Part shown: one piece after another, positions 10,027 through 20,074 of the stretch
Layout of the letters: every line of letters begins with the position of its first letter
Numbering within the stretch: the stretch's first letter is position 1
Assembly (NCBI GenBank): GCA_047602405.1
Contig: JASGHJ010000002.1
Coordinates: 1,312,001 to 1,376,000 of the forward strand
DNA length: 64,000 nt
Source: Anaeromyxobacteraceae bacterium
Lineage (GTDB): Bacteria; Myxococcota; Myxococcia; Myxococcales; Anaeromyxobacteraceae
Direction: 5' to 3'
Notes under the pieces: model-generated
Databases searched by the model: none
What the model saw: only the letters and a program-made list of their open reading frames with translations
Told to the model about the DNA's origin: nothing
Translations under genes and position numbers: made by a program

Positions 10027-12726
10027 ATGCCGACCCTCACGCTCATCGACGGCTCGGGCTTCGTCTACCGGGCGTTCCACGCCTTGCCCGGGCTCACCAC
10101 GACGAAGGGCCTCCACACCAACGCCGTCTACGGCTTCACGACGATGCTGCTGAAGGCGCTGCGCGAGCACGCGCCCACGCACGCCGTGCTGGTGCTCGAC
10201 GCCGGCCGCCGGAGCTTCCGCAACGACATCGACCCCACCTACAAGGCGAACCGCCCCGAGGCGCCGGACGAGCTGCGCGAGCAGTTCCCGCTCGTGCGCG
10301 ACGTGGCGCGGGCGCTCGCCGTGCCGCTCCTCGAGGAGCCCGGCTTCGAGGCGGACGACATCATCGGCACGCTCGCCTGCAGGGGGCGGGAGGCCGGGTT
10401 CGACGTGGTGGTCGTCACCGGCGACAAGGACTTCGCGCAGCTCGTCGACGGCAAGGTCTCGCTCTACGACCCGATGGCCGAGGCGAGCGGGCGCGGCGGC
10501 TGGACGGGGCCGGCGGAGGTGGAGAAGAAGCTCGGCATCCGCCCGGATCAGGTGGTCGAGTACATGGCGATCCTCGGGGACAAGATCGACAACGTCCCCG
10601 GCATCCCCGGCATCGGCGAGGTCACCGCGGCCGCCCTCGTGAAGCACTTCGGGACGGTCGAGGAGATGTTGAAGTGCCCGGAGGAGATCCCGGCGGCGGT
10701 GGCGCGCGGCGGCGAGAAGGTGAAGGCCAAGATCGTCGACAACGCCGGGCGCATCCGCACGAACCGCGCGCTCGTCACCATCAAGTGCGACCTCGAGGTG
10801 CCGTGGGATCCGGCCGCGTTCGCGCGGCGGGCGCCCGATGACGGAAGAGTCCGTGCGCTCTTCACCGAGCTCGAGTTCTCCCGGCTCCTCAAGGACCTGC
10901 CGGCGCCGCCGCCCGCGCCGCGCGCCGAGAAGGCGGAGCTCGTGCTCGACGCCGCCGCGCTCGAGGGCATGGCCGCCGCGCTCGCGGCCGCCCCGGACCT
11001 GGGCGTCCTGCCGGTGCTCGCCGGCGACGCGCCGCGCACCGAGCCGCTGGTCGGCCTCGGGCTCGCGGGCGGGGGCCGCGCCTTCTACGTGCCGCTCTCG
11101 CACCGCTACCTCGGCGCCCCCGCGCAGCCGAAGGCGGACGCCGTCGCGGCCGCGCTCCGGCCGGTGCTCGCCGGGGCGAGGCCGGTGCACGCCCACGGCC
11201 GCAAGGCCGCGCTGCACGCGCTCGCGGGCATGGGCCTCGCCCTGCCGGACGCGGGGCTCGACACCGAGCTCGCGAGCCGGCTCCTCCTGCCGACGCGCCG
11301 GGAGCACGCGCTCGCCGACGTGGCGCGGGAGCGGCTCGGGAACGAGCTGCCGCGCGACCCGAGCGGCTCCGACGCCAACCGGAAGTCGGAGCGGATGGCG
11401 CCGGACGGGATCGAGGTCGAGCGCACCGGCGCCTGGGCCGCGGCGAGCGCCGCCGCGATCGTGGAGCTCGCCGGGGCGCTCGGCCGCGCGCTCGACGAGG
11501 AGGGGGTGGGGCCGCTCTACCGCGACGTCGAGGCGCCGCTCGTCCCGGTGCTCTTCGACATGGAGCGCACCGGGGTGCTCGTCGACCGCTCCGCGATGGC
11601 CGGCATGAGCGAGGAGTTCGGCGCCTCGATGGCGGACCTCGAGACCCGCATCCACGGGCTGGCCGGCCACCCCTTCAACATCGCCTCCACCCGGGAGCTC
11701 GCGCAGGTGCTCTTCGTGGAGCTCGCGCTGCCGGTGCTGAAGCGGCTCAAGACCGGGCCCTCGACGGACCAGGACGTCCTCGAGAAGCTCGCCGAGCAGC
11801 ACGAGCTGCCGCGGCTCGTGCTCGAGCACCGCGCGCTCTCGAAGCTGAAGGGCACGTACGTCGACGCGCTCCCGCAGCTCGTCGATCCGGCCGACGGCCG
11901 GATCCACACCACCTTCCACCAGGCCGGCGCCGCGACCGGCCGGCTCTCCTCGACCGATCCCAACCTGCAGAACATCCCCGTGCGCACCGAGCTGTCGCGC
12001 CGGATCCGGGCCGCCTTCGTGGCGCCGGAGGGCTGGCGGATCCTCTCCGCGGACTACTCGCAGATCGAGCTGCGCATCCTCGCCCACTACTCCGGCGACC
12101 CCGCGCTCGCCGAGGCGTTCCGGAACCGCGAGGACGTGCACACCCGCACCGCCGCCGAGACCTTCGGCGTGCCGCCCGGCGAGGTGACCGCCGACCAGCG
12201 CCGCATCGCGAAGGTGCTCAACTTCGGCATCGCCTACGGCCTGTCGGCCTTCGGCCTCGCCCAGCGCCTCGATCTCCCCGGCTCGACCGCGCAGGGGATC
12301 ATCGACCGGTACTTCGCGCGCTACGCCGGCGTGAAGCGCTACGTCGAGAAGTCGGTCGAGGACGCCCGCGCCGCCGGCGAGTCGCGCACCCTGTTCGGCC
12401 GCGTCCGCGCCATGCCCGACCTCGCCGCCCGCAACCCCGCCCTGCGCAACGCCGCCGAGCGCACCGCGATCAACACGCCCATCCAGGGCACCGCCGCCGA
12501 CATCGTGAAGGTCGCGATGATCAAGGTCCACCGCGCGCTCCGCGAGGAGCGCCGGGCGGCGCGCCTGCTCCTCTCGGTCCACGACGAGCTCGTGCTCGAG
12601 GTGCCGGAGGGGGAGCTGCCGGTGATCGAGGCGCTCGTGCGGCGCGAGATGGCGGGCGCCGCGGAGCTCAGCGTGCCGCTCGACGTCGAGGTCGGCCACG
12701 GGCGGAGCTGGGCGGAGGCGCACTGA
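10027..12726 (+). CDS. polA: DNA polymerase I
   Basis: LIDGS..YRAFHA, EADD, TGRLSS.DPNLQNIP, DYSQIELR, QGTAAD and VHDE motifs. Confidence 0.98.
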   Translation: MPTLTLIDGSGFVYRAFHALPGLTTTKGLHTNAVYGFTTMLLKALREHAPTHAVLVLDAGRRSFRNDIDPTYKANRPEAPDELREQFPLVRDVARALAVPLLEEPGFEADDIIGTLACRGREAGFDVVVVTGDKDFAQLVDGKVSLYDPMAEASGRGGWTGPAEVEKKLGIRPDQVVEYMAILGDKIDNVPGIPGIGEVTAAALVKHFGTVEEMLKCPEEIPAAVARGGEKVKAKIVDNAGRIRTNRALVTIKCDLEVPWDPAAFARRAPDDGRVRALFTELEFSRLLKDLPAPPPAPRAEKAELVLDAAALEGMAAALAAAPDLGVLPVLAGDAPRTEPLVGLGLAGGGRAFYVPLSHRYLGAPAQPKADAVAAALRPVLAGARPVHAHGRKAALHALAGMGLALPDAGLDTELASRLLLPTRREHALADVARERLGNELPRDPSGSDANRKSERMAPDGIEVERTGAWAAASAAAIVELAGALGRALDEEGVGPLYRDVEAPLVPVLFDMERTGVLVDRSAMAGMSEEFGASMADLETRIHGLAGHPFNIASTRELAQVLFVELALPVLKRLKTGPSTDQDVLEKLAEQHELPRLVLEHRALSKLKGTYVDALPQLVDPADGRIHTTFHQAGAATGRLSSTDPNLQNIPVRTELSRRIRAAFVAPEGWRILSADYSQIELRILAHYSGDPALAEAFRNREDVHTRTAAETFGVPPGEVTADQRRIAKVLNFGIAYGLSAFGLAQRLDLPGSTAQGIIDRYFARYAGVKRYVEKSVEDARAAGESRTLFGRVRAMPDLAARNPALRNAAERTAINTPIQGTAADIVKVAMIKVHRALREERRAARLLLSVHDELVLEVPEGELPVIEALVRREMAGAAELSVPLDVEVGHGRSWAEAH

Positions 12727-12907
12727 GGGGAGGGGGCTGAAGGTGGGGCGGGGGAGGGCGCGCGAGGGCGGCTCCGGGAGCAGCCCACCGAAGCGAGCCG
12801 AGCCGCTCCCGGGAATTCAGGTGGTTGCGCTGCCTGGCGAGCACGGAGCCCTCTCGCGCGGAGGCCGGTCGCGCGAGGCCCGCGCGAGCGGCGAGGGATC
12901 CCGCTGT

Positions 12908-13324
12908 TCACCAACTGTAACTTGATTGGGCGGACGTTGCCGCGGGGGAGAAGCCGCGTTCTCGGGCCTCAGTCCGCAGGTCGAGCTGCCAGGAGCCCTC
13001 CTCCCAGCGTTTCAGCGCCTCTCCGGCCGAGAAAGCAGCGAGCCCCTTGCCCCGCGCGAGTTCCTGCAGGACGCGACGAGCCTCGGCGTGCCGATGGCGG
13101 AGCAGGAATGCGGCGGCCATCACTCGGACGTGGGGTCTCGCCGTGAACATGAGGTGAGCCAGCGCATCGCGCCCCGCGTCACCCAGCGCCCGCAGTTCCT
13201 GGAAAGCTCGGAGGGCGAGCTGCGCGTGCTGGCTGCCGGTCTTCGCGTCGCCCTTCCAGATGGCGTCGGTCTGGGCCGCGACGTTGTCGGCGAAGCTCCT
13301 GACGAGCGTTTCGATCGGCCTCAT
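12908..13324 (-). CDS. DUF2019-like protein (putative toxin-immunity type)
   Basis: F...VAAQTDAIW.GD...G; GRDALA.L...P.VRV.AA.FLL; ALKRWEEG.WQLD. Confidence 0.7.
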   Translation of the reverse strand: MRPIETLVRSFADNVAAQTDAIWKGDAKTGSQHAQLALRAFQELRALGDAGRDALAHLMFTARPHVRVMAAAFLLRHRHAEARRVLQELARGKGLAAFSAGEALKRWEEGSWQLDLRTEARERGFSPAATSAQSSYSW

Positions 13325-14040
13325 GGGTCAGCGTCCGCGGCAGGCGCGTGGAGGGACGTATCTGACCGAGGGTGCGGACGGAAGCTCGAGCGGCCCCTTC
13401 GGCCCGCCGCTGCCCAGGGCTCGCAGCGGGTCAGCAACCACGTGCGTGGGGAGGAGACCGCGAAAGGCCGGCCGTCCGGCGCGAGCGCGGCGGCCGTCGA
13501 GAAGCGGTCGGCGTCCGCCTCCTGGACGGGCTCTCCCCGCCGCGAGGCGTGCGAGGCGAAGTTGTCGAGTACGTAGCGGAGCGCGTTCCGGACCTCGGCT
13601 GGGGTCCGGAGCAGGTGTGCGTGGTAGCGGTCCGCGAACACCTGGCCGCGGCGCTCCATCAGCGCGTTGAGCCCCTTCGCGAGACGGCCGGCGAGGGCGC
13701 GCATGCCCTGTGCGAGGGCTCCGGCGTCGGCGGCCTCCACGATGACGTGCAGATGGTTGCCCTGGACCGACAGGTGGATCACGCGGAAGTCCTCGCGGCT
13801 CCTGACGCCCTCGAGCGCAGCGGCGATCACCCGCCACGAACGCAGGCTGCGGAGGTTCCAGACGTGCTCGCGGACGCGGAGGGTCACGTGGACGGGGGTC
13901 CATCTGCCGAATCGGAGCGTGCGCCGATGGGAGACCCCGGGGCGTTCTCCGGAAGCCTTCCGCCCGGCGCCCGCCCGCTCCCCGCCCCAGCCGTTCACGG
14001 GCGGCAGGTCGAATGCGAGCTGCGGAGGGCGGGCGGACAC
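13321..14040 (-). CDS. REP-associated tyrosine transposase-like protein (Y1/HUH)
   Basis: PVHVTLR, SVQGNHLHVIVEA (HUH), GQVFADRYH and ALRYVLDN (catalytic Tyr). Confidence 0.85.
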   Translation of the reverse strand: MSARPPQLAFDLPPVNGWGGERAGAGRKASGERPGVSHRRTLRFGRWTPVHVTLRVREHVWNLRSLRSWRVIAAALEGVRSREDFRVIHLSVQGNHLHVIVEAADAGALAQGMRALAGRLAKGLNALMERRGQVFADRYHAHLLRTPAEVRNALRYVLDNFASHASRRGEPVQEADADRFSTAAALAPDGRPFAVSSPRTWLLTRCEPWAAAGRRGRSSFRPHPRSDTSLHAPAADADP

Positions 14041-14135
14041 GCACGGATTGTCTCACCCGGGCCTGACAACGTCCGCCCAATCAAGTCACTCAAGGTGAAC
14101 GTCGACCGTCCCGGGCGGGCCGGCCGACCCGAGGC

Positions 14136-14218
14136 CATCCTTCGACTTCGGGGTGCGCGGGCTGTCCAGGCGCCTCCGGACAGCCCGGGGCGGCGCGCCC
14201 CTACGCTCAGGATGAACG
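14136..14218 (-). repeat. REP-like palindrome
   Basis: Minus strand CGTTCATCCTGAGCGTAGGGG...CCCCGAAGTCGAAGGATG with inner hairpin GGGCTGTCC..GGACAGCCC; resembles CGTC-type REP architecture. Confidence 0.6.
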
Positions 14219-14260
14219 GCCAGGTGGGTGCTGCGGTACCGCCGCCATTGCTCCGCCCCG

Positions 14261-14332
14261 CTACTCCGCCTTCTTCGACCTCGCGGACGCGGCGAGCGGG
14301 ACCGGCTCCTCGCGCGGCTCGCGGAAGGCCTC
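14261..14332 (-). repeat. Displaced duplicate of the divIVA 3' end (att-like direct repeat of 19436-19507)
   Basis: 72 nt, 66/72 identical to 19436-19507; both encode EAFREPREEPVPLAASARSKKAE-stop. Confidence 0.92.
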
Positions 14333-14344
14333 CTCCCTCTCCCC

Positions 14345-17176
14345 CTACGGCACCCCCACCGGCGACGGTCGCAGTGCCCCGCCGTCGCCGAGCTGGGAGG
14401 CCGAGTCGTCGCCCCAGGCCCACAGGGTTCCGTCGCGCCTCACCGCGAGGGTGTGCCTGCCGCCGGCGCTCACCGCGGCCCACGTGGCGTCCGTCCCGAT
14501 CTGGACGGGGGCCCTGCGCTCGGCGACGGTGCCGTCGCCGAGCTGGCCCGACGAGTTGTCGCCCCAGGCCCACAGGGTGCCGTTCGCCTTCAGCGCCACG
14601 GTGTGGCTCCACCCGGTCGACACGCCGACCCAGTCCGCGTCGGCGCCGACCTGCGCGGGGACCGTCCGCCCGGTGCGGGTGCCGTCACCGAGCTGGCCGC
14701 TGCCGTTGTAGCCCCAGGCCCAGAGCGAGCCGTCGGCGCGGAGCGCGAGCGTGTGCTTGTTCCCGGCCCACGCGGCGGCCCAGCCCGCGCCGGCGGGGAC
14801 CTGGACCGGCGCGGTGCGGGGGGCCGTCGTGCCGTCGCCGAGCTGGCCGTGCCCGTTCGCCCCGAAGGCCCAGAGCGTGCCGTCGCCCTTCACCGCGACG
14901 GTGTGCTGGTCGCCGGCGGAGGCGGACGCCCAGCTGTCCCCGGCGACCGGGCCCGGCGCCGCGCGCCGCGCGACGGCGGGGTCGCCGAGCTGTCCGGAGG
15001 CGCCGTCGCCCCAGGTCCAGAGCGTCCCGTCCGACCGGACGCCGGCGGTGTGCGCGGTGCCCGCGGACACGGCGAGCCAGGGCCCCGCGTCGATCGTGGC
15101 CGGCCCGAGCTGGAGCTCCCAGCCACCGGTGCCCACCTGGCCGAGGGCGTTCGCTCCCCAGCCGCGGAGCGCGCCGCCTCCGGTGAGCGCCGCGGAGTGG
15201 AGGCTGCCCGCGGAGACCGCGCCCCAGTCGCGCTGGTCCCCGACCTGGGCCGGCGTCCGGTGCGTCGGCAGGGGACCGAGCCCGAGCTGCCCCCGCGCGT
15301 GGTCGCCCCAGGCGTGCAGCGTGCCGTCGCGGGCCAGGCCGAGGGAGTGGAGGCCGCCGAGCGCCACGGCCGCGGCGGGCGCGCCGCCGACGAGCGTCGG
15401 TGTCGCGAGGTCCGCAGTGCCGCCCACGCCGAGCTGCCCGGAGCCGCCCGCGCCCCAGGTGAAGAGCGAGCCGTCCGCCTTGCCCGCCGCCGAGTGCGTC
15501 GCGCCCGCGGCGACAGTCGCCCAGGGGCCACCGGGGACGGACACGGGCCGCGTCCGATCGAGCGAGGACCCGTCGCCGAGCTGGCCGTTGCCGTTCCAGC
15601 CCCACGCCCAGAGCGAGCCGTCGGCGGCGAGCGCGAGCGTGTGGAACCCGCCCGCTGCGACGGCGACGAAGCGCGTGCCGGTCGCCCTCTGGACCGGCGC
15701 GCTCCGGTCGTCGAAGCTCGCGTCTCCGACCTGGCCGTAGAAGTTGAAGCCCCAGACCCAGAGCGAGCCGTCGGCCCTCAGCGCCGCGGAGTGCCCGTCC
15801 CCGGCGGAGACGGCGGTCCAGCTCGCGTCGGTCCCGATCCGGACCGGCGTGCTCCGCGCGGCGGTGCTGCCGTCGCCGAGCTGTCCCGACTCGTTCGCGC
15901 CCCAGGCCCACAGCGTGCCGTCGGCCTTCAGCGCGAGCGAGTGGGAGCCGCCGGCCGCGACCGCGGCCCACTCCCCGGCGGCCCCGACCCGCACCGGTGC
16001 CGGCCGCTCCACCGCGGCCCCGTCCCCGAGCTGGCCCGCGACCCCCTCGCCGAAGGCGAGGAGAGAGCCGTCCGCCCGCAGCGCGAGCGTGTGCGCCCGG
16101 CCCGCGGACACGTGCGACCAGCCGTTCGAGGTCCCCACCTGCCGGGGCGCGTCGGCGCGCGCGGTCGCGCCGAGGCCGAGCTGGCCGCTCGCGCCGTCTC
16201 CCCAGGTCCACAGGGTCCCGTCCGGCCGGATCCCGGCGGAGTGCCGCGCTCCCGCGGCGACCTCGAGCCAGGCGCCGCGGCAGTTCACCACGACGTCCTC
16301 GACGCCTCCGGCGGGCACGAGGCCGGCGCCGGCGGCCACCTCGCACCGCTGGGCGGGCTGCTCCGGCTGCGCGACGACGGTCACCGCGAAGGCCGCGCCC
16401 ACGTCCCGCCCCAGGGCGAACGCGAAGGTCGTCGCTCCCGCGGCGACGGCGAGGTCGGGCAGGCCAGGACAGGCGAGCACGAGCCCGCTCCCGGCGAGGC
16501 CGACCACCGTCCCGCCCACGGTCGCGGTCTCGGGCGGGAGGAACTCGACCGAGGTCCTCGCGACGACCTCGCCGCCCACCTCCGCGCTGACCTCCTGCGT
16601 CCCGGCCACCGGGGACGTGATCCGCGCCGAGGCCTCGCCGGCCGCGTCGGTAGCGCCCGAGGGCGGATTGAGCGTGGCCCCGCCGGAGGCCGCGAACGTC
16701 ACGCGGGTGCCGGGGGCGACGGGGGCGCCACCGGCGTCGAGGACCGTCGCGACGAGCAGCGCCCCCGCGCCGCCCGTCCGCGCCACGCCGGGGATCGCCG
16801 CCAGCACGGAGGTGAGCGGGGAGGGGGCGCCGTGGGCCGGGAGGACCTCGACGTCGACCTCGCGGGAGGCGGACCCGGCGGCGTTGCTCGCGGTGAGCGT
16901 GTAGCGGGTGGTGACGGCGGGGCGCACCACGGTTCCGGCGCCGGAGACGGCGCCGGGCCCGGGCGCGATCGTGACCACGTCGGCCCCGCGCACCGACCAC
17001 GCGAGCGCGGCGGCCTCGCCGGCGCGGATCAGCGCGGGCGTGGCCCTGAACGCCTCGATGACGGGCGGAGCCCCGGGCTCCTGCCCGCCGCCGCCGCAGG
17101 CGGCGAGCCACAGCGCGAGCCCCGCGATCCCGAGCGCCGCCCGGGCCGGGGAGGCGATCGCCGTCCGCGCGCGCAC
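14345..17176 (-). CDS. RCC1-repeat lipoprotein with Ig-like domains
   Basis: GTG start, lipobox LAAC, Big_1-like segment (ATDAAGEASARITS), 13 GxLW.WG.N..GQLG repeats. Confidence 0.9.
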   Translation of the reverse strand: MRARTAIASPARAALGIAGLALWLAACGGGGQEPGAPPVIEAFRATPALIRAGEAAALAWSVRGADVVTIAPGPGAVSGAGTVVRPAVTTRYTLTASNAAGSASREVDVEVLPAHGAPSPLTSVLAAIPGVARTGGAGALLVATVLDAGGAPVAPGTRVTFAASGGATLNPPSGATDAAGEASARITSPVAGTQEVSAEVGGEVVARTSVEFLPPETATVGGTVVGLAGSGLVLACPGLPDLAVAAGATTFAFALGRDVGAAFAVTVVAQPEQPAQRCEVAAGAGLVPAGGVEDVVVNCRGAWLEVAAGARHSAGIRPDGTLWTWGDGASGQLGLGATARADAPRQVGTSNGWSHVSAGRAHTLALRADGSLLAFGEGVAGQLGDGAAVERPAPVRVGAAGEWAAVAAGGSHSLALKADGTLWAWGANESGQLGDGSTAARSTPVRIGTDASWTAVSAGDGHSAALRADGSLWVWGFNFYGQVGDASFDDRSAPVQRATGTRFVAVAAGGFHTLALAADGSLWAWGWNGNGQLGDGSSLDRTRPVSVPGGPWATVAAGATHSAAGKADGSLFTWGAGGSGQLGVGGTADLATPTLVGGAPAAAVALGGLHSLGLARDGTLHAWGDHARGQLGLGPLPTHRTPAQVGDQRDWGAVSAGSLHSAALTGGGALRGWGANALGQVGTGGWELQLGPATIDAGPWLAVSAGTAHTAGVRSDGTLWTWGDGASGQLGDPAVARRAAPGPVAGDSWASASAGDQHTVAVKGDGTLWAFGANGHGQLGDGTTAPRTAPVQVPAGAGWAAAWAGNKHTLALRADGSLWAWGYNGSGQLGDGTRTGRTVPAQVGADADWVGVSTGWSHTVALKANGTLWAWGDNSSGQLGDGTVAERRAPVQIGTDATWAAVSAGGRHTLAVRRDGTLWAWGDDSASQLGDGGALRPSPVGVP

Positions 17177-17184
17177 GCCCCCGC

Positions 17185-19203
17185 CTAGTGGCAGCCGAAG
17201 CAGGCCGACCGGAACACCGGCCGCACGTCGAGGGACCCGTTCCGGTGGAGCGTCGCGCAGGGTGTGCGGCCGCCCGGGTCGCAGGTCGTGGCCGTGCTCA
17301 GGGTCGTGTCGAGGCTCGGGCCGGTGGGCGTCTCGATGCCGAGCGCGTCCGGGTGGCAGAGCTGGCAGCGGTTCCCGCCCGCCGCCCCGTGCCAGCCGCT
17401 GTGCCAGGTGTAGCGTCCGCCGCCCGGCGCGGTGAGGTCGTGGCAGGCCGTGCAGCCGCCGGAGGGCGGCGCGTACCAGGACGGCGTCGTGGCCCCGCCG
17501 CCGTAGGCGGCCGTGGCGAGCACCGGCTCGCCGTCGCCGCCCGGGAAGGCGTAGGTGTACTCGCCGGGCGGGACGGAGTGGCAGGCGACGTTCGAGCAGG
17601 TCTTCGCGATGGGATCGAACGTCGGCGCCGGCAGCGAGGCGCCGGTCGCGGGGCCGGCGGGGTCGAACCCGACCACGCCGATGACGGCGACGTGGCAGGC
17701 GGCGCAGCCGATGTTCCGGGCGAGGTGGAGCGGGTGGGCGCCCGCGGGCAGCGCGGCCACGGTGTGCGGGTCGTGGCAGCCGGTGCACCCGCCCGTCGCG
17801 TCGACGGAGAAGGGGTGACCGGTCACGACCCCGGCCTGGACGTGGCAGCCGACGCAGCTCGCGGCACCCGAGCGCGCCGCGTGGGCGTCGCCGTGGCAGC
17901 CCGCGCAGTTGCCGGGGGTGCCGGGGCCGGACGCGTGGACGGACGCGGCGAAGTCGCTGACGATCTGCGGGGCCGTGGCGTGGCAGCCCGCGCAGAAGCT
18001 CGAGCCGACCGGGTTGCCGCGGGTGGCGAACTTCCAGGTGAAGTCGGTGCTGCTGACGGTGCCGGCCGAGACGTCCCCCGGGTGTCCACCCGCGTTGGCG
18101 CCGACGTGGCACGCGAAGCACATGACGTAGCGGGCCGCGTGGTCGGAGGCGGACCAGTTCGCGAAGACCTGGGTGCTCGCCCCGACGCCGACCGCGGAGT
18201 GACAGCTCTCGCACTGGGTCTGGGCGACGCCCGCCGGGTTCGAGGTCACGATCACGGTGGTGTTGGAGAACGAGCCGCCCGGCTGGACGGTCAGCGTGAA
18301 GGTGTAGGTGCCCTCCGTCGCAGGCGCGACGAAGGTGGTCGCCGCGGCGCCCGGCGGATACAGCGCGACCGGCGCCGGGGTCGAGTTGACCTGCGCCCAG
18401 GCGTAGGAGCTCACGGGCGGCGTCGTCGCGAGGGTGCCGCTGCCGTCCAGGGTGACGAGGGCGCCCGGCCGGACCACCTGGCCGGCGCCGGCCTGCGCGG
18501 TCGGATTGCCCGCGAAGCTCGCGAGCACCTGGATGTCGGAGGTCTGGACGGCGGCGGTCACCTTCACGCTGGCGTTCGCGGCCCAGGGGCCCGTGCATGC
18601 GACGCCGTTGCAGGTGAAGACGGTGGAGCCCGTGACCTGGATGGCCGTGACCTTCCAGCCCGAGATCGGCTGGAACGTCACGGAGGCGGAGTTCCCGTAG
18701 TAGTAGAACGAGGCCGGGGCAGCCGAGACGGAGCCGCCCGGCCCCGCGGTCGGGGTGAGCTTGTACTGCACGGGGGTGAAGCTCGCGGTGATGGCGACCG
18801 TGGCGTTCGCCACCGTGGCCGCCGGGGCAGACCCCGACCACGTCGCGCCGCCCGAGGCGACCGTGACGTTGTTCACCTTCACGTACGAGATCACGTAGCC
18901 GGCGTTCGCGGTCACGGAGACCGGGATCGTGTCGAGGTTGAAGCCGCTCCTCGTCACCGTGCCGCTCGTGCTGGTCTGCCCGGTCATGACAGGCGTCGTC
19001 ATCGAGCCGCCACCGGACATCGCGCGCGCAGAGATCCAGTACGTGTAGCTCGTGACCGCCCCGGAGCTCTGGCCCTGGCCACCCGGCCGGGTGTCGCCCA
19101 CGTCGCAGCCCGCCAGCGCGGCCGCGAGCGCCAGGGTCGCGACGACCCCTGCGCTCCGGCGTCCACTCCGGACGCGGCGAAGACCTCTCGGCTCGATCAT
19201 CAT
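17185..19203 (-). CDS. Multiheme c-type cytochrome lipoprotein (CxxxxCH/CxxCH type)
   Basis: Lipobox LAGC; 10 CxxCH plus one CxxxxCH (CSNVACH); N-terminal beta-rich and PKD-like domains. Confidence 0.9.
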   Translation of the reverse strand: MMIEPRGLRRVRSGRRSAGVVATLALAAALAGCDVGDTRPGGQGQSSGAVTSYTYWISARAMSGGGSMTTPVMTGQTSTSGTVTRSGFNLDTIPVSVTANAGYVISYVKVNNVTVASGGATWSGSAPAATVANATVAITASFTPVQYKLTPTAGPGGSVSAAPASFYYYGNSASVTFQPISGWKVTAIQVTGSTVFTCNGVACTGPWAANASVKVTAAVQTSDIQVLASFAGNPTAQAGAGQVVRPGALVTLDGSGTLATTPPVSSYAWAQVNSTPAPVALYPPGAAATTFVAPATEGTYTFTLTVQPGGSFSNTTVIVTSNPAGVAQTQCESCHSAVGVGASTQVFANWSASDHAARYVMCFACHVGANAGGHPGDVSAGTVSSTDFTWKFATRGNPVGSSFCAGCHATAPQIVSDFAASVHASGPGTPGNCAGCHGDAHAARSGAASCVGCHVQAGVVTGHPFSVDATGGCTGCHDPHTVAALPAGAHPLHLARNIGCAACHVAVIGVVGFDPAGPATGASLPAPTFDPIAKTCSNVACHSVPPGEYTYAFPGGDGEPVLATAAYGGGATTPSWYAPPSGGCTACHDLTAPGGGRYTWHSGWHGAAGGNRCQLCHPDALGIETPTGPSLDTTLSTATTCDPGGRTPCATLHRNGSLDVRPVFRSACFGCH

Positions 19204-19435
19204 CCCCCCCTGCACCGCAGGTCGACCCACACCTGCCAGCGCCGGACCAACGGGGGAGGCGCGGATCGCGGGCGATCCGGAGGGCTGGCCGGGCAGCGCT
19301 GGGGCATAAGCCCCAGCGGGCCGGCCGGTGGGGCATATCACGCACCCACAGTTCACTGACCGTGAGTCAGACGGCGGGTGTCAGGAACGGACGGTGATTC
19401 ACGTGCGGTGATGGGTCCCGGGCGGCGCCGGGGCG

Positions 19436-19936
19436 CTACTCCGCCTTCTTCGATCGGGCGGAGGCGGCGAGCGGCACGGGCTCCTCGCGCGGCTCGCGGA
19501 AGGCCTCGAGCAGCTTGAGGTGGCTCTCGACGATCATGCGGATGTTGCTCTCGAGCTGGACCCGCTGGCGCTTCAGCTCGTTGATGTCGTCGACGATCCG
19601 GAGGAACCGGCCGTGGGCGCCCTGGACGATCTTCTCCGCCTGGAGCTCGGCGTCGGCGAGGCGGATCTCGGTCTCCTTGCGGGCGGAGTCCTTGATGTCC
19701 TCGGAGGCCTTCTGCGCGGTGACGAGCGTCTCCTGGAGGATGCGCTCCTTCTCGCGGAAGGTGGCGATGTCCTCGGCCTTGCGCTGGTTGTCCTCGCGCA
19801 GGGAGGTGTTCTCCTTCACGAGCGCCTCGAACTCGGTGGCGATCATGGCGAGGAAGGCCTCGACCTCCTCCCGCGCGTAGCCGCGGAAGGCCCGGGGGAA
19901 CTGCTTCTGGGTGATGTCGAGGGGGGTGACGTTCAT
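19436..19936 (-). CDS. divIVA: DivIVA domain protein
   Basis: MNVTPLDITQKQF.RAFRGY..EEV..FL plus coiled coil; AGGAG RBS. Confidence 0.9.
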   Translation of the reverse strand: MNVTPLDITQKQFPRAFRGYAREEVEAFLAMIATEFEALVKENTSLREDNQRKAEDIATFREKERILQETLVTAQKASEDIKDSARKETEIRLADAELQAEKIVQGAHGRFLRIVDDINELKRQRVQLESNIRMIVESHLKLLEAFREPREEPVPLAASARSKKAE

Positions 19937-20074
19937 GGATCGCTCCTGCCGGGCGGGGAGGCCCTTCCCGATGATAACGGGGGAAGGGGGGCTGTCCATT
20001 TCGCCCACCCCGCGCACACCCTCGCACCCGGGGCCCCGGCGCCGGTATGATCCCCGGGACCCCGGACCCCGGAG

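Follow-up and report, generated by a model that had tools for sequence, protein, structure and literature searches.

An integrase-less 5.2-kb islet in the 3' end of divIVA, probably captured without a recombinase

Genes and repeats at the locus

The window (the whole stretch of 64,000 nt that was analysed) carries an inserted block of 5,175 nt within the last 24 codons of divIVA (Table 1). Inspection of the minus strand showed two 72-nt direct repeats (14261–14332 and 19436–19507), each encoding 23 DivIVA residues and the stop codon. The copies were 92% identical over the full 72 nt and completely identical over the gene-proximal 29 nt, and the match had an E value of 1.7e-22 when searched against the whole genome. 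Six bases differed, all synonymously; they fell in one Pro, one Val, two Ala and one Arg codon (the last with two changes), as an earlier sequence-only reading had described. Because only 53 of the 216 possible single changes are synonymous, the probability of six synonymous changes out of six under random placement was calculated to be about 2e-4.

Table 1. Features of the divIVA locus in window coordinates
Feature	Position	Strand	Basis
divIVA, intact, 166 aa	19436..19936	-	PF05103, E 6e-38; 97% identity to G010; 166-aa entry in protein collection
Working divIVA tail, putative incoming (donor) copy	19436..19507	-	Unlike G010 and the displaced copy at 4/6 variable sites; downstream flank unlike G010
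Identical 29-nt block, codons 145–153, gene-proximal copy	19479..19507	-	Repeat alignment
Incoming intergenic DNA, 235 nt	19201..19435	-	Absent from this place in G010
Predicted lipoprotein multiheme c-type cytochrome, 671 aa, 10 CXXCH motifs, PKD domain	17185..19200	-	Pfam; lipobox-like LAGC and motif count from sequence
Predicted lipoprotein, Big_1 Ig-like domain and about 12 RCC1 repeats	14345..17176	-	Pfam PF25390, PF00415, PF13540, PF02369; lipobox-like LAAC from sequence
All-purine 12-nt tract between RCC1 stop and repeat	14333..14344	-	Sequence; purine-run counts among called genes
Displaced divIVA tail, putative original host end; lacks a start codon and is not translated as such	14261..14332	-	Same as G010 at 4/6 variable sites
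Original flank downstream of divIVA	14252..14260	-	9 nt identical to the flank behind G010's single divIVA

Gene calling agreed with the earlier reading that only a multiheme cytochrome gene and an RCC1 gene lie between the copies; both products are predicted to be cell-surface proteins. The reading frames of both were intact, and the RCC1 gene indeed ended 12 nt from the repeat, with its stop at 14345. The cytochrome had only three full-length homologues (identity 49–59%); none of 362 other genomes from the order contained its N-terminal part, and a search of genome contigs with the cytochrome alignment gave no locus. No sigma-70 promoter-like or terminator-like match was detected in the 235 nt of incoming intergenic DNA. 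The cargo is host-like, its codon score lying at about the 11th percentile and its GC3 at the 18th–21st percentile of host genes. The GC content of the islet was 77% and its arm was 12 nt long; the genome's six tRNA-end islands had a GC content of 65–71% and arms of 99–3783 nt.

The 12-nt arm consisted entirely of purines. Only 2 of the 4059 called genes had 12 purines out of 12 directly after the stop codon. Where a run of this kind lay within 22 nt of the stop, 8 of 11 other genes were followed by a gene on the same strand, versus 954 of 4059 overall. The tract, which is Shine-Dalgarno-like, likely served a truncated-away donor gene as its ribosome-binding site. The cargo-side boundary was sharp, with the Shine-Dalgarno-like tract standing without a gene behind it; an insertion that was first larger and then shortened by deletion would leave the same 12-nt junction.

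The empty site and other divIVA loci

The aligned DNA of the sister genome G010 was 92.8% identical on average to that of this genome. G010 lacked the islet and contained a single divIVA with an empty site, which confirmed that the islet had been inserted into divIVA and supplied the comparison with relatives that had been proposed. At the six variable sites, G010 matched the displaced copy four times and the working copy twice, the two kinds alternating along the tail. Because the displaced copy and its flank resembled G010, the displaced copy was taken as the old end of the host gene and the working tail as the incomer, in line with the earlier proposal that incoming DNA had supplied the working end.

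The displaced copy had only two private changes, whereas about 16 would be expected if it were old and dead (Poisson P 1e-5; conditional binomial P 0.016). With all six differences synonymous and the displaced copy almost undecayed, it was borne out that the two copies had until recently been evolving under coding constraint. This near-absence of decay suggests that the insertion was likely recent and that the donor was likely a sister lineage or species. Compared with G010, the tail had 4 synonymous changes in 24 codons and the gene body 7 in 144 (P 0.053). This excess leans weakly towards a crossover near the identical block, which integration at an attachment site predicts likewise; the earlier placement of the crossover inside the 29-nt core was narrower than the data, which allow any point upstream of codon 153.

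The islet was one of 142 insertion or replacement events relative to G010 (1.58 Mb compared of about 6.0 Mb). Since it was a singleton, it shows no general habit of the lineage. Three apparent 25–43-nt overlaps at G000/G010 breakpoints were inspected, and none was a clean coding-tail copy. A scan of the own genome for gene-end duplicates returned a 33-nt repeat (C1:1741140/1757774) that ends two intact genes and a 31-nt repeat (C2:3412804) that is part of a longer paralogous match.

A total of 199 other divIVA loci (119 + 80; about 162 distinct) were surveyed, of which 134 (71 + 63) reached polA. The search for tail duplicates recovered the window itself as positive control (E 6e-26). No second divIVA tail was found at any of the 199, although only G010 shares the tail sequence closely, which leaves the search with low power within the clade. 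The species cluster (DivIVA identity of at least 95%) has two further members, both on short contigs. Nor was a recombinase found near divIVA at these loci by tblastn, or an integrase by Pfam in the downstream ORFs covered (31/35 and 42/80 of those called). Matches of 20–37 nt in L035, L037, L045, L071/L154/L178, L074, L182, L193, L198 and L222 did not include the stop or lay in or beyond polA, and an integrase match in L247 (E 0.001) fell in a peptidase MA gene. Repeated use of the site with a fixed junction was thus not seen, and the earlier claim that divIVA is an att target was not supported at these loci.

Across the loci, the divIVA–polA gap ranged from 3 nt to 12.6 kb and contained unrelated, ordinary genes. 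Within the genus, the gap holds changing genes. The cytochrome gene was absent downstream of divIVA in all 199 loci, and RCC1 gave one distant match (33%). A donor genome with the cargo behind an unduplicated divIVA was not found among 36 other genomes of the genus and 362 of the order.

Route of entry

The islet was probably a capture of donor chromosome in which no recombinase took part, with a homologous crossover within divIVA at one end and an illegitimate join at the other. In the donor, the cargo would have stood behind an intact divIVA in the divIVA–polA gap, as part of a longer operon. The transferred fragment would have been cut just past the RCC1 gene and its cut end joined to divIVA codon 145, probably through a few shared bases. 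Either the fragment closed into a circle and integrated by a single crossover, or the event was anchored by a longer homologous stretch upstream. The crossover would give divIVA the synonymous tail of the donor and push the host tail 5.2 kb downstream, and the product would survive because DivIVA is unchanged.

Two features of the islet bear on this route. One end is homologous to the recipient (the 72-nt divIVA tail, 92% identity), and the resemblance of the 12-nt arm to a cut-off Shine-Dalgarno tract indicates an illegitimate join. A ComEC-family gene is present. In an E. coli experiment, trimming, recircularisation and a single crossover left a duplicated gene end in 56 of 60 clones (PMC3240628). 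Against this route, perfect homology extends here over just 29 nt (72 nt at 92%) and so falls short of the 109–950 bp duplicated in the 14 clones sequenced in that experiment. The same source gives deletion, rather than duplication, as the usual outcome of classical homology-facilitated illegitimate recombination (HFIR).

The first alternative, possible but rather unlikely in our judgement, is that divIVA codons 145–153 form an attB, the islet being cargo-only and mobilised in trans, or being what remains of a larger element after a later deletion removed the integrase side as far as, or partly including, the displaced copy. The direct repeat restores its target gene and a relative has the empty site, as in a site-specific element. 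The layout is like that of icd/e14/icdC (PMC13626634), and a deletion after insertion would account for the 12-nt arm. The islet itself proved to be integrase-less, as had been read from its letters. No integrase gene was found by Pfam in the two cargo genes, and no remnant of a tyrosine or serine recombinase was detected in 12701–20000 by tblastn, either with seven recombinase stretches of the genome itself (best E 0.12) or with a large serine recombinase of G010. The absence of a second tail or recombinase at the 199 loci speaks against this alternative, as does the absence of the divIVA tail from the viral contigs, phages and plasmids searched. Tail DNA patterns gave no match in viral or metagenome contigs, and the DivIVA alignment gave no locus in viral contigs.

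The empty site, in favour of an attB, shows an imperfect inverted dyad (14/20) with a central dinucleotide, centred 5 nt into the 29-nt block and thus near its start. Such a score was reached in 1% of random windows, in about 2% of coding windows, and in 0.8% when the first 10 centres only were considered; four tests were made and the P values are uncorrected. With a 6–8-nt spacer, the best scores were not significant, being matched by 30% and 6% of controls. Against its role in recognition, the putative attP had no dyad at the same centre (7/20), 33 of 34 relatives scored 5–12 for the attB dyad, and divIVA contained another 14/20 dyad elsewhere.

In favour of this alternative, large serine recombinases were found in 22 of the 36 other genomes of the genus. 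None of 30 serine-recombinase loci carried divIVA sequence, however; 11 matched a tRNA-Met gene instead, and the common large serine recombinases of the family sit at tRNA-Met. G000 had no PF07508 match, and its seven PF00589 places lay in tRNA islands (five) or were Xer-like by score and position (two). The attachment-site explanation keeps some weight because of the weak dyad at the empty site and because, as reported in PMC3191183, an integrase-less E. coli island is mobilised in trans, excising without RecA. A more far-reaching version, in which the divIVA end is an undescribed attachment site, the 14/20 dyad is the recognition site, and a recombinase of this Anaeromyxobacter-like clade moves cargo-only, host-like islets in trans, each with a synonymous tail and in this case with electron-transfer surface proteins as cargo, is doubtful.

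It is very unlikely that the assembly merged two strains living together, of which one had the cargo behind divIVA and the other the transposase region. Such a chimera would agree with the two tails differing about as much as sister species do, but the contig that contains the window is 3.76 Mb long and belongs to a genome with 2 contigs and 0.89% contamination, both cargo frames are intact, and the junction shares only a few bases, probably too few for an assembler overlap. Slightly less credit still can be given to an insertion promoted by the neighbouring HUH (RAYT/TIRYT-type) transposase cutting single-stranded DNA near its own repeats. At 35–1350 nt from the displaced copy there are indeed a REP-like repeat (14138–14225) and a gene for a Y1 transposase flanked by 34-nt inverted repeats; yet the junction (14332/14333) is on the far side of that copy and not at the repeat, the inverted repeat is absent from the islet ends, and a transposase of the same kind is present there in G010 without the islet. 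Least probable of all is an old in-place tail duplication flanking ancestral cargo that G010 lost by recombination between the copies, which would fit the alleles that G010 shares with both copies and appears largely refuted by the near-absence of decay in the dead copy, the alternation of the G010 alleles where one hybrid would be expected, and the genes downstream of divIVA at the 199 loci.

Known scars of this kind

The islet is a natural, clean example of an already known kind of scar. It represents gene gain anchored on an essential core gene that was left unharmed, and the empty site in the sister tells the old tail from the new. A synonymous duplicated gene end alone is no proof of an att site. 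Should such scars mostly be recombinase-free, they would point to one way in which sister species exchange accessory genes, for instance those for multiheme cytochromes; should an integrase be found, divIVA would be a new integration target. Full-text literature searches, PMC13626063 (text and one supplement) and PMC12884075 (text) yielded no account of integration at divIVA.

Recombinase-free capture has its closest parallels in two systems. The engineered plasmid of Amarir-Bouhram et al. 2011 (PMC3240628) likewise entered E. coli free of integrase, anchored on a gene end, with partial gene-end duplication and one non-homologous joint. Its duplications were identical and 109–950 bp long, whereas the islet is natural, with a diverged synonymous tail of 72 nt and probably a sister-species donor. 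In T6SS effector/rhs arrays (Kirchberger et al. 2017, PMC5361080), an incoming module also replaces the 3' end and the old end is shifted downstream; no integrase is known there according to that source, which proposes HFIR. The new end in those arrays encodes a different toxin and the events repeat, whereas here a core gene received a synonymous end in a single event.

Two further systems resemble the islet in layout. The cryptic prophage e14 encodes its own integrase. At icd/icdC of E. coli K-12 it separates the working gene end from a displaced C-terminal pseudogene that differs from it synonymously, but e14 measures 15 kb and is excised upon SOS induction (PMC13626634), whereas the islet carries neither phage nor recombinase genes and the loci surveyed included no second occupied site. 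The microcin H47 island of E. coli is similarly small, integrase-less and placed between long imperfect direct repeats; it was shown to excise and integrate without RecA, and its att sites occur widely (PMC3191183), whereas the islet is known from sequence at one occupied site, and its repeat is the end of a coding gene.

The duplicated divIVA end and its cargo

The last 72 nt of divIVA were found to be repeated on the far side of two cargo genes, with an E value of 1.7e-22 for the match against the 6.16-Mb genome. The working copy (the end of the intact gene) and the displaced copy showed six base differences in five codons, all of them synonymous, and their gene-proximal 29 nt were identical. 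The sequence-only reading had described the 72-nt repeat, these differences, the two genes and the 12-nt arm exactly. Codon use of the cargo was within the host gene range. Judged from its domains, the cargo would likely equip the cell with a cytochrome at its surface and a lipoprotein of the beta-propeller type, with roles in electron transfer or attachment. No match to the N-terminal part of the cytochrome turned up in 362 further genomes of the order, only three full-length homologues were found (49–59% identity), and the cytochrome searches, which included these 362 genomes, yielded no donor genome.

Coordinates of the islet, its surroundings and the loci compared (positions in the window unless a contig, C1 or C2, of the same genome, G000, or a locus of a relative, L, is named)
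Feature	Position	Remarks
divIVA	19436-19936	minus strand; PF05103
Working copy of the tail	19436-19507
Displaced copy of the tail	14261-14332
Multiheme cytochrome gene	17185-19200	between tail copies; predicted lipoprotein; 10 CXXCH
RCC1-repeat gene	14345-17176	between tail copies; predicted lipoprotein; stop 12 nt from repeat
Transposase unit	12906-14100
Y1 (HUH) transposase gene	13321-14040	PF01797, weak
DUF2019-like gene	12908-13324	lowest codon score among genes tested
34-nt inverted repeats	12906-12939, 14067-14100	flank the two preceding genes
REP-like family member	14138-14225	35 nt from displaced copy
Tandem array	C2:3676100-3677050	period 157 nt; unit is a REP-like hairpin plus a transposase terminal-repeat copy
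Single copies related to the array	C2:271523, 1981000, 3346513; C1:1882930
tRNA-Met gene	C2:2475346-2475422
tRNA-Arg island	C2:2290548-2307796	17 kb; 45-nt perfect repeat; no PF00589 match; resolvase fragment at 2304435
tRNA-Val insertion	C2:1833250-1834374	1 kb relative to the sister genome; flanked by tRNA-Val and a 40-nt repeat of the tRNA end
divIVA-polA gap, distant relative	L112:1400-3800	RCC1-repeat gene, 33% identical; no tail duplicate
divIVA-polA gap	L162:368-11443	large unrelated block; methylmalonyl-CoA mutase and carboxylase cluster
divIVA-polA gap	L039:6035-14428	large unrelated block; kinase, sigma factor and nucleotidase cluster

Resident and incoming tails

A close DivIVA (97% identity) was present in one of 36 other genus genomes, the sister genome G010, whose mean DNA identity to G000 was 92.8% over 1.40 Mb aligned. 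At its locus, polA and a Y1 transposase accompany a lone divIVA and the cargo is missing, so that the islet is an insertion and an empty site, proposed earlier as a check, does exist in a relative; the closest matches to the cargo elsewhere in G010 were distant paralogues. At the six variable sites G010 agreed with the displaced copy at four and with the working copy at two, and nine of its flank bases matched the displaced copy only, which suggested that the displaced copy is the resident divIVA end and the working tail the incomer. The G010 alleles alternated along the tail between the two copies, indicating that simple excision does not account for G010.

Private changes numbered four in the working copy and two in the displaced one, and every one of them was synonymous. 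For a dead 72-nt copy split in place, about 16 changes would be expected while 17.7 synonymous sites gain four, compared with the two observed (Poisson P 1e-5; conditional binomial P 0.016). This near lack of decay implied that, before a recent meeting, the copies had been coding sequence in separate lineages, in line with the earlier claim that both tails had evolved as coding sequence. On these sequence comparisons, the distance between the source lineages would be about that between G000 and G010; the event is recent.

divIVA as an integration target

Regions downstream of divIVA were collected in two overlapping sets (about 162 distinct loci). One comprised 119 loci from the genus, the order and metagenomes, of which 71 extended as far as polA and 77 either did so or provided 5 kb of sequence; the other added 80 loci on genome contigs, 63 of them extending to polA. 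A duplicate of the gene's own tail was found in neither set, while the window, used as positive control, was recovered at E 6e-26. No recombinase was detected in either set by tblastn with the tyrosine recombinases of G000 and a resolvase, nor at divIVA loci with a large serine recombinase query, which recovered 28 of 30 control loci. One match beside a divIVA (E 0.001) was rejected, as it falls in a peptidase gene. The sequence-only reading had taken divIVA for an att target and pointed to integrases beside 3'-end duplicates; neither was borne out in these loci, among which a close tail occurs only in G010 and a clade-specific element could be missed. Pfam annotation of called downstream ORFs (31 of 35 and 42 of 80) gave kinases, carbonic anhydrases, metabolic operons and the like, and the divIVA-polA gap changed in content and length (3 nt to 12.6 kb) without att scars in the loci examined.

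Large serine recombinases occurred in 22 of 36 genus genomes and were absent from G000; none of 30 of their loci held divIVA sequence. The divIVA tail was not found in the viral contigs, phages or plasmids searched, and no report of divIVA as an integration target was found in the literature searched. Many of these genus recombinases had open frames of 540–745 aa. Eleven of the 30 loci, one of them in G010, adjoined a match to the tRNA-Met gene; these loci, within L338-L357, apparently represent a serine integrase clade that uses a tRNA site.

Six tRNA-end repeats in G000 bound islands of 12–29 kb, with a PF00589 match in five, a GC content of 65–71% and 99–3783 nt from the repeat to the nearest called gene. 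The islet, with a GC content of 77% and an arm of 12 nt, does not look like these islands. It was the only clear protein-gene tail duplicate in scans of its own genome, and the only one, beside one tRNA end, among 142 insertions or replacements of at least 300 nt between G000 and G010 over 1.58 Mb of G010. The islet did not qualify as an integrase-encoding element, and repeated use of the site was not seen in the divIVA loci examined.

Probable mode of capture

The 12 nt that separate the RCC1 stop from the repeat consist only of purines, a feature seen directly after the stop in only 2 of 4059 called genes. In 11 other genes such a run lies at most 22 nt past the stop, and a same-strand gene follows in 8 of them versus 954 of 4059 overall. 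Given this rarity and context, the tract resembles a ribosome-binding site whose gene has been lost, and the cargo-side join looks illegitimate. A junction of this form would arise if a cut piece of chromosome had entered; later loss of part of a larger element would also produce it, and in that case the original duplication may have been longer. The crossover, placed earlier in the 29-nt core, cannot be put there under either course.

The islet was probably acquired by recombinase-free capture of a sister-lineage chromosome fragment. A fragment reaching from inside divIVA to just past the RCC1 gene would have entered the cell. It would then have circularised and integrated through a single crossover, or have been anchored upstream and joined at its other end by microhomology. 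In E. coli, 56 of 60 clones acquired a gene-end duplication through trimming, recircularisation and a single crossover, a route 10 times commoner than homology-facilitated illegitimate recombination proper (PMC3240628). The homology was longer there than here, which, like the lack of a donor genome in the searches, counts against capture. Integrase-free displacement of old 3' ends has been proposed for T6SS and rhs loci (PMC5361080). The event is real, of a type already known and ordinary in kind; it works as a homology-anchored capture would and has the appearance of an att scar.

A rather unlikely alternative is that the islet is a site-specific element, for which e14 at icd (PMC13626634) and the H47 island, which lacks an integrase (PMC3191183), would be the models. 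In favour of this, an imperfect inverted repeat (14/20) lies at the empty site around a dinucleotide five bases into the 29-nt block, a level found in 1% of random and about 2% of coding windows (four tests, uncorrected). An inverted repeat about a central dinucleotide is the geometry expected of a serine-recombinase site. Against G010 the working tail was also slightly more diverged than the gene body (P 0.053), which leans towards a crossover near the block. However, the modelled attP scored 7/20 at the same centre, 33 of 34 relatives scored 5–12 there, and a second 14/20 dyad lies elsewhere in divIVA; the divIVA and serine-recombinase surveys likewise speak against such an element.

The transposase unit next to the displaced copy resembles a TIRtron (PMC3733652). 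A unit of this kind occupies the same position in G010 but lacks the DUF2019 gene and is only 77% identical. The unit was therefore exchanged or inserted in an event of its own, and it is able to carry cargo. The REP-like family is abundant, with 31 BLAST hits and 73 occurrences of a 15-nt motif.
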